From: an uncultured Bacilli bacterium
GTDB lineage: Bacteria > Bacillota_I > Bacilli_A > RF39 > UBA660
Reading direction: 5' to 3'
DNA length: 64,000 bases
NCBI GenBank assembly: GCA_934102355.1
Contig: CAKOSO010000001.1
Span: 229,620-293,619, forward strand
Shown here: in pieces, positions 16,592 to 16,687 of the stretch
How the letters are laid out: every line of letters begins with the position of its first letter
Numbering within the stretch: the stretch's first letter is position 1
Made by a program: the position numbers and the translations under genes
The notes under the pieces: model-generated
Told to the model about the DNA's origin: nothing
The model's input: the letters and a program-made list of their open reading frames with translations, nothing else
Database searches by the model: none

Positions 16592-16687
16592 TTGCCAACA
16601 TTTTCCAATTAAATTATTTTCAATTCTATTATTTCCATTTTTTACCAATTGTCCATTAATAGTATTAAATTACCGAATTTTACCAAT
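16592..16687. repeat. TTACCAATT-family motif cluster between convergent genes (trx-like / uvrC)
   Basis: TTGCCAACA, TTTTCCAATT, CCATTTTTTACCAATT (identical 16-mer to 3797-3812), and TTACCGAAT/TTACCAAT phased 10 bp apart at 16670-16687. Confidence 0.65.

Follow-up and report, generated by a model that had tools for sequence, protein, structure and literature searches.

A gene-less candidate AbrB-type site array between convergent genes, beside a conserved T4SS-like operon of an uncultured gut bacterium

Introduction

The transition-state regulator AbrB of Bacillus subtilis recognises its DNA targets through a loose, repeated motif. The high-affinity consensus is bipartite: two TGGNA halves, separated by 4-5 AT-rich base pairs, can be in direct, reverse-direct, inverted or everted orientation, and the binding regions extend over 27-80 bp and are built from multiple TGGNA motifs (PMC3738160; PMC3025583). 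Both genome-wide studies in B. subtilis also cite an earlier SELEX result, with the arrangement M-5bp-M-4bp-M-5bp-M (PMC3738160; PMC3025583). AbrB occupies hundreds of sites, most of them without an effect on transcription (PMC3025583), and these transcriptionally silent sites provide a direct precedent for a dense site that is not associated with a gene.

Three other families of short repeated operators are relevant for comparison. The Omega (RHH) heptad arrays of pSM19035 function both as operator and as centromere, and consist of the repeat WATCACW in contiguous 7-bp spacing. The MraZ boxes, a series of at least three repeats that all point the same way, are bound by a protein with the SpoVT/AbrB fold, and in E. 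coli the repeats read TGGGN. In the Mollicutes, the MraZ repeats are AAAGTG[T/G] (PMC8475190). Finally, the CtsR operator is a direct repeat, A/GGTCAAA-NAN-A/GGTCAAA, located at clp or ctsR promoters (PMC12634643).

The DNA discussed here is a stretch of 64,000 nucleotides, referred to below as the window, from an uncultured gut bacterium of the RF39/UBA660 type. A preliminary description had pointed out copies of a repeated motif in the gap between two convergent genes, next to a block of genes resembling a type IV secretion system (T4SS). It took these copies for a mobile or structural repeat, a relic of an island boundary, or a site for a nucleoid or segregation protein, in preference to a transcription-factor box.

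The array in the convergent gap

The gap extends over 183 bp (16554-16736), between the 3' ends of a thioredoxin/TraF-like ORF (16107-16553, plus strand) and of uvrC (16737-18494, minus strand). Eight half-sites are found in 96 bp of this gap (16592-16687), all of them in one orientation, with TGGNA on the minus strand and TNCCA on the plus strand. Five are strict (16593 TGCCA, 16603 TTCCA, 16633 TTCCA, 16643 TACCA and 16681 TACCA) and three are degenerate, with one mismatch each (16618 TTTCA, 16651 GTCCA and 16671 TACCG). Successive spacings are 10, 15, 15, 10, 8, 20 and 10 bp, and the CC cores fall into two phases, the first at 16595, 16605, 16635 and 16645 and the second at 16653, 16673 and 16683.

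One pair is a strict bipartite site in direct orientation, TTCCA-TTTTT-TACCA (16633-16647; TGGTA-AAAAA-TGGAA on the minus strand), and the 20-mer that encloses it is identical to positions 3793-3812. Two further pairs are near-bipartite and also read on the minus strand: TGCCA-ACATT-TTCCA (16593-16607), which has one C in the spacer, and TACCG-AATTT-TACCA (16671-16685). The latter corresponds to the 10-bp-phased pair of the preliminary description, formed by TTACCGAAT (16670-16678) and TTACCAAT (16680-16687), which are 10 bp apart from start to start. The 16-mer CCATTTTTTACCAATT, at 16635-16650, has an exact second copy at 3797-3812 and, when up to two mismatches are allowed, four matches in the window against 0.47 expected. 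The motif copies, the phased pair and the exact 16-mer reported earlier are thus all present where they had been placed.

The array is flanked on either side by terminator hairpins. The intrinsic terminator of the thioredoxin/TraF-like gene occupies 16552-16574 on the plus strand, with a T tail up to ~16584, and on the minus strand the probable terminator of uvrC, judged from its fold and from reading the sequence, is a weak hairpin rich in A and T with a T run behind it (~16697-16726). As had been argued before, the copies in the gap have no gene to control: the 3' ends of two genes converge on them, and a terminator hairpin stands on either side. The minus strand of the gap does contain the promoter-like hexamer pairs TGGACA-16-AATAAT and TGGAAA-18-TAAAAT (16655-16628 and 16607-16578), with no ORF downstream of them before the terminator hairpin, and the region has no excess of promoter-like matches (9, with 10.1 expected). 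A region of 291 bp around the gap is identical in four other metagenome contigs, all from the same species. In contigs encoding an identical thioredoxin-like protein, the only others with this junction, the gap is 100% identical to that of the window, and so there is no phylogenetic footprint.

The motif family across the window

Read on the same strand as the genes next to it, the repeated unit is ATTGGTAA, and the motif takes the form TGGTA-AAAAT-TGGTA. The common denominator of the copies is the pentamer TGGNA (TGGTA, TGGAA or TGGCA), followed by a second copy after 4-5 A/T bases, and the half-site period of ~10 bp places the half-sites on the same helix face. The window contains 21 exact copies of the 8-mer TTACCAAT, compared with 6.1 +/- 2.5 in shuffles, and none of 100 shuffles reached 21. 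The 13 intergenic matches to TTACCAATT with at most one mismatch are confined to five of the 51 intergenic regions (3615-3939, 4999-5125, 7234-7474, 8168-8336 and 16554-16736). The copies are therefore not uniformly scattered, a pattern that the preliminary description had named as refuting its reading. This holds both in the 64 kb and in a further 10 kb past the right end of the window, where no motif scattering was found either. The arrays span 13 kb, and the other 57 kb examined are free of such sites.

A strict search was carried out for TGGNA-W(4-5)-TGGNA in all four relative orientations, with 200 dinucleotide-preserving shuffles as a reference. The window contains eight such sites, against 1.33 +/- 1.17 in the shuffles (maximum 5), and all eight are intergenic and restricted to four regions: four sites lie upstream of a gene for a Bro-N/DinD-like protein, one upstream of a serpin-like gene, two upstream of a phosphoesterase gene and one in the gap. 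With regard to orientation, five pairs are direct and three everted, inverted pairs (TNCCA-W4/5-TGGNA) are not found at all, and the gap has the direct type only. Among ~63,900 sliding 100-bp windows, a density of at least five half-sites per 100 bp is reached only at 3737-3905, 7283-7410 and 16582-16693. The strongest copies are the tandem pairs TTGGTAAAAATTGGTAA at 3639-3656 and 5064-5081, with related tandem pairs at 3793-3812 and 16631-16650, and the everted pairs are TGGTAATTTTTACCA at 7310, TGGAAAAAATTACCA at 3750 and TGGAAAATTTTACCA at 3871. Array copies share just a 20-32 nt motif pair, with 75-88% identity, and neither terminal inverted repeats, target duplications nor extended homology between copies were found.

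Promoter-proximal arrays and the genes that follow them

The largest array (3639-3887, minus strand) precedes the Bro-N/DinD-like gene (2760-3614). Its strict sites are at 3640 (direct), 3750 (everted), 3795 (direct) and 3871 (everted), with a degenerate pair at 3836-3850, and the tandem at 3640 adjoins the ribosome-binding site of the gene. Upstream of the serpin-like gene (3940-4998), the direct tandem TACCA-ATTTT-TACCA (5064-5081, minus strand) ends ~12 nt upstream of the -35 element of a promoter called by eye, TTGCAT-16-TGTTATAAT. The array preceding the NinI-like metallophosphoesterase gene (7305-7390, minus strand) combines an everted pair, TGGTA-ATTTT-TACCA (7310), a single TTCCA (7356) and a direct pair, TGGAA-AATAT-TGGAA (7372). 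It has the phosphoesterase promoter on one side and the terminator of the preceding gene on the other, and is conserved in strain L081. Lastly, a single half-site, TTACCAAT (8269-8276, minus strand), is located upstream of a gene for a 230-aa protein and reads GTTGGTAA in the other strain.

Comparisons between strains reveal uneven divergence in this neighbourhood. The gene for the 230-aa protein (7475-8167, against 1958-2659 in L081) is a hot spot of strain divergence, with 83% nucleotide and 66% amino-acid identity; between the window and L081, the VirB4 gene, which lies just upstream of it, has 98.6% identity, and the intergenic array on its downstream side 97.9%. Turnover of sites within the species was also observed: the pair TTTGGTAAAACTTGGAAAT of the window (3833-3852) reads TTTGATAAAACTAGGAATT in strain L232 (6290-6310), with TGATA/AGGAA in place of TGGTA/TGGAA, so that both half-sites are lost, and the neighbouring pairs are unchanged.

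The four array-bearing genes, encoding the Bro-N/DinD-like, serpin-like, NinI-like and 230-aa proteins, have no homologues in the T4SS loci of relatives that were examined. The serpin-like protein (352 aa, secreted, 3940-4998) has many homologues at ~60% identity, a few of which have precomputed PF00079 matches, suggesting a divergent bacterial serpin. Another species has a homologue of this gene, at 62%, that is not preceded by any sites, which indicates that the arrays do not travel with the genes. Searches of phage records with the Bro-N protein returned only four unannotated faecal contigs. A second Bro-N paralogue in the window (57984-58811) has no array, and relaxed Pfam scans of the local uncharacterised proteins detected no AbrB or HTH domain.

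Comparison with AbrB and other operators

The motif family fits the published description of AbrB sites point by point, with the exception of the inverted class. As in the B. subtilis AbrB/Abh regions (Chumsakul et al. 2011, 2013; SELEX by Xu and Strauch), TGGNA halves are separated by a 4-5 bp AT-rich spacer, in the gap at 16633-16647 and in the one-mismatch pairs starting at 16593 and 16671. Other shared traits are the occurrence of both direct and everted pairs, the long phased regions, of which the gap array is one, the overlap with promoters and the existence of many sites without a transcriptional role. A link with transition-state or sporulation-initiation genes is seen in other organisms, as described below, and the genes linked to arrays in the window are accessory. 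There are differences as well. The half-site is longer and more uniform here (ATTGGTAA), the inverted arrangement TNCCA-W4-TGGNA, which is the commonest in the B. subtilis ChAP-chip data, is represented by no site, and the sites are gathered within a 13-kb neighbourhood rather than spread over the genome. The host is an uncultured RF39/UBA660-type gut bacterium in which the regulator gene was not found in the DNA read: no AbrB/SpoVT gene was detected in the ~74 kb covered by the 64-kb window and the 10 kb past its right end, nor in the T4SS neighbourhoods of relatives, which amount to 1.5 Mb.

We consider that there is an even chance that the gap is a multi-site binding region for a transition-state regulator of the AbrB family (SpoVT/AbrB swapped-hairpin), and the identity of the putative binder as an AbrB-family protein is given an even to slightly favourable chance. 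The best reading of the gap array places it, as the one without a gene, among a few candidate operator arrays in this neighbourhood. This affects two earlier suggestions. The exclusion of a transcription-factor box does not hold, given that the motif follows the grammar of a known factor and that the other four clusters occupy ordinary promoter or leader positions. Concerning a site for a nucleoid or segregation protein, a nucleoid-like binder fairly describes the best candidate, and no Par family was detected by Pfam in the genes located between 95 and 18494.

The remaining known operators resemble the motif to a lesser extent. CtsR operators are also heptad direct repeats with a 10-bp period that overlap promoters in Firmicutes, and GGTAAAA differs from GGTCAAA in a single position; in contrast, the conserved C is never present here, everted pairs occur and no clp genes are nearby. 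No match to the CtsR operator was found in the motif regions at up to three mismatches, and its count across the window is below expectation. MraZ boxes share the direct repeats, the 10-bp period and binding by a swapped-hairpin oligomer, but they have only the direct orientation and are found essentially only upstream of mraZ, neither of which holds here; their sequence differs, everted pairs are present in the window and there is no mraZ gene nearby. The Omega arrays are likewise made of short direct and inverted repeats at several promoters, with a possible non-promoter role, and differ in repeat sequence and spacing, with partition genes absent here. DnaA-box, PurBox, 0A-box, CodY and sigma-54 sites were rejected by eye, as the CCA core and the spacing do not fit them.

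The same tandem in other organisms

A metagenome scan with TTWCCAWTTTTTACCAATT gave at least 120 loci, with one match each, most of which look like chance. Nevertheless, six of them lie beside genes of the Spo0A/AbrB circuit, in three independent groups, and a rough estimate for random intergenic matches beside such genes is ~0.1 per 120, which points to this circuit. In the first group, formed by three Clostridia-like species (L124, L143 and L148) with Spo0A proteins ~64% identical to one another, the tandem is in the leader, ~25 bp upstream of the spo0A start and downstream of a TTGATT-17-TGnTAAAAT promoter, and an everted pair, TGGTAAnTTTTACCA, lies ~100 bp further upstream. The shared layout, with a tandem or triple TNCCA operator, covers ~10617-10850 (minus strand) in L124, 1-155 in L143 and 270-430 in L148. 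No paper on the exact tandem sequence turned up in the literature.

The second group comprises two near-identical contigs, L202 and L214, in which the tandem overlaps the -35 element and spacer of the promoter of a gene for a standalone Spo0A_C paralogue. At least two 0A boxes of the TTCGACA type were seen just upstream of the TNCCA tandem (4770-4890 in L202 and the reverse-strand equivalent in L214), a layout that would be compatible with joint control by Spo0A and an AbrB-like protein. In the third, L131, an abrB homologue has a TTGACA/TATAAT promoter, and the tandem precedes this promoter. Here (157-600, minus strand) the AT-rich tandem TTACCATTTTTTACCAATT is ~95 bp upstream of the abrB -35 element, consistent with AbrB autoregulation; the homologue has a Cys-rich C-terminal tail and the flanking coding sequence appears GC-rich by eye.

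Judging by the ORF translations, the window itself encodes sporulation and germination genes (20371-21408, 25330-27181 and 49364-53041), including a sigF/G-like sigma factor, a YlmC/YmxH-like protein, spoVAC/AD/AE and a gerK-type receptor operon. Their presence makes a sporulation-type regulatory network plausible for this organism.

A scan of viral contigs returned 22 single matches, mostly in one Clostridium-like element with a BlaI-family gene, which say nothing about the gap. In ten low-GC IMG/VR contigs (L084, L088, L090, L092-L094, L100, L102, L104 and L105), the tandem lies ~70-90 bp upstream of a gene for a 131-aa protein, which we take, from its N-terminal sequence read by eye, to be a BlaI/MecI/CopY-family repressor, and nine of these ten contigs have a third half-site ~1265 bp away. 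ORF-poor arrays of ~10-bp units, ATTGGTAAAT or TTTTTACCAA, were also seen at 960-1330 in L210 and 1400-1545 in L212; they are probably satellite-like and unrelated.

The T4SS-like block and its relatives

Between 8.3 and 16.5 kb, the genes of the block specify two pilin-like proteins of the T4SS type, a TrbL/VirB6-like protein of 1146 aa, a VirB3-like protein, a TraC-like protein and VirB4. The T4SS-like operon extends from 8337 to 15993. Elsewhere in the window (27196-29322 and 48260-49258) are a VirD4-like coupling protein and a pilin-like protein with, by eye, a CHAP/amidase-like C-terminal domain, and comEA and comEC are present as well. The operon promoter is close to consensus (TTGACA-18-TG-GATAAT) and carries no motif copies.

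VirB4 has thousands of homologues, with 70-89% identity, and a relative of it is encoded in at least 571 stretches of species-representative genomes, under records such as 'Bacilli bacterium', 'uncultured Tenericutes', Mycoplasma sp. CAG:611 and UBA660, which are gut bacteria of the RF39/UBA660 type. This breadth, together with the level of identity, points to vertical inheritance. Each of the 83 T4SS loci examined keeps the core gene order (pilin-VirB6-VirB3-VirB4), and the closer relatives also have the divergent thioredoxin-like gene. On the basis of this distribution, the T4SS core is a lineage-conserved chromosomal system and not a recent island. A VirB4 100% identical to that of the window was found only on a 2.9-kb contig, and exact-protein look-ups of uvrC and rlmN gave no record.

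In the closest species (VirB4 at 89%), two pilin genes and VirD4 occupy the position of the accessory genes. Across ten relatives, the thioredoxin-like gene has different neighbours on its 3' side, which marks a synteny breakpoint, and in eight of the ten the gap after this gene is 14-46 bp long, essentially a shared terminator. The exact ATTGGTAA motif forms no clusters in the T4SS loci of 80 relatives. Bipartite TGGNA sites in the relatives number 63 over 1.5 Mb, against 29.6 expected, an approximately two-fold and unclustered excess of which much is due to one conserved coding position in VirB4. From these comparisons, the arrays sit in species-specific DNA and the gap array sits at a synteny breakpoint. 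The earlier view that the clusters bracket the T4SS block has to give way to this pattern, in which they follow the species-specific accessory DNA and the breakpoint instead.

Alternative explanations for the gap array

The array may follow the same recognition grammar and yet be a leftover promoter-operator without a present function. The accessory gene to which it belonged would have disappeared or changed place as uvrC came to adjoin the thioredoxin-like gene. Several observations would fit such a relic: the other four arrays each precede a species-specific and separately terminated gene, the polarity of the gap array is the same as theirs, the minus strand carries promoter-like hexamer pairs yet no ORF before the terminator hairpin, the junction coincides with the synteny breakpoint at which most relatives have only a short gap, and site turnover is documented by the bipartite site destroyed in strain L232. 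However, the five strict half-sites have kept both their sequence and their phase, and the gap shows no trace of a former coding sequence. The identity of the 291-bp region in four contigs also speaks for maintenance of the sites, although it carries little weight given that these contigs are of the same species. Overall, a relic appears rather unlikely, although it is the likeliest of the alternatives.

A regulator encoded in the accessory region could also bind the sites, the candidate being the Bro-N/DinD-like protein (2760-3614). Its gene has the largest array and a tandem beside the ribosome-binding site, in a manner resembling autoregulation, Bro-N is the only DNA-binding domain recognised among the local proteins, and relatives that lack these genes also lack the arrays. 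Moreover, every array is within 13 kb, and such a concentration fits a local regulator better than it fits the genome-wide pattern of B. subtilis AbrB. Against it, the tandem is not found near a Bro-N gene among the 142 viral and metagenome loci listed, where it is found near genes of the spo0A family and abrB, and the second Bro-N paralogue has no array. We know of no sequence-specific Bro-N operator of this kind. A local regulon of this type is accordingly regarded as improbable.

Transcription of a small RNA from the minus strand of the gap, with the array as its promoter-operator, is less probable still. Apart from the promoter-like pairs on this strand, the fold of the minus strand has a z of -1.94 (8 of 200 shuffles fold as well), against -0.27 for the plus strand, and the reversed terminator hairpin of the thioredoxin gene could end a transcript of ~60-120 nt. 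Nonetheless, the fold signal comes mostly from that terminator hairpin, which has no T tail on the minus strand, no Rfam family matches at the gathering threshold and the promoter-like matches are at the level expected. The search for a small RNA suggested in the preliminary description thus yielded a weakly folding strand and no Rfam match.

Finally, a mobile element, the att relic of an island, or a plasmid-type centromere or iteron array at the edge of a T4SS island is very improbable, because, despite the resemblance of short direct and inverted repeats to iteron or centromere arrays and the position at a synteny breakpoint, the T4SS core appears vertically inherited in at least 571 genomes, the relatives have no arrays, and none of the genes scanned with Pfam, which cover 95-18494, matched an integrase, relaxase, Rep, ParA, ParM or ParB family. 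A mobile or structural repeat, including a MITE, is not in keeping with copies that share only a motif pair (20-25 nt, or 20-32 nt at most) without flanking or terminal inverted repeats, target duplications or homology beyond it. A boundary of an integrative element or genomic island does not match a core present in 83 of 83 loci, nor the other end, 2742-2759, where there is no array. The absence of Par and Rep families in the same genes also led to the rejection of a partition centromere or an iteron origin.

Proposed mode of action

If the AbrB reading holds, an uncultured lineage has in this gap a multi-site binding region of the AbrB type. As the most likely mechanism, AbrB-like tetramers would bind the phased half-sites cooperatively, over ~100 bp and on one helix face. 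At the four promoter-proximal arrays, binding would repress species-specific accessory genes during growth, namely those for the Bro-N/DinD-like protein, the secreted serpin-like protein, the NinI-like phosphoesterase and the 230-aa protein. The gap array would be bound likewise without a cognate gene, as a silent and nucleoid-protein-like site, in the way of most B. subtilis AbrB sites.

Occupancy of the gap might still have local consequences. The motif itself may generate promoter-like sequence on the minus strand, with TTGGNA resembling a -35 element and TGGTAAAAT an extended -10 element, and binding would silence the pairs created in this manner. It could also stop transcription of the weakly terminated uvrC from reading into the antisense strand of the thioredoxin-like gene and the T4SS operon. 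Such a silencing or roadblock role at the gap is less certain than the AbrB-family identity. An architectural element proper, in which an AbrB-like nucleoid protein would nucleate on the ~100 bp of phased half-sites and act as an insulator or roadblock between the convergent terminators or as a loop anchor, seems doubtful; in the loop version, the gap array and the arrays at 3.6-8.3 kb would enclose the T4SS operon and tie its activity to the growth phase of this gut bacterium with its reduced genome.

Significance

The view of the T4SS block itself is unchanged by the findings on the arrays. Sporulation biologists may find more use in the tandem itself, which several Clostridia conserve in the leader of spo0A. 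If the proposed reading is true, an AbrB-type operator would provide a readable regulatory code in an uncultured gut lineage of the RF39/UBA660 type, and a few species-specific accessory genes beside a conserved T4SS-like operon would be marked as controlled by the growth phase. The gap would then also be a clear example of a gene-less AbrB-type array, with a bearing on the role of the transcriptionally silent AbrB sites.
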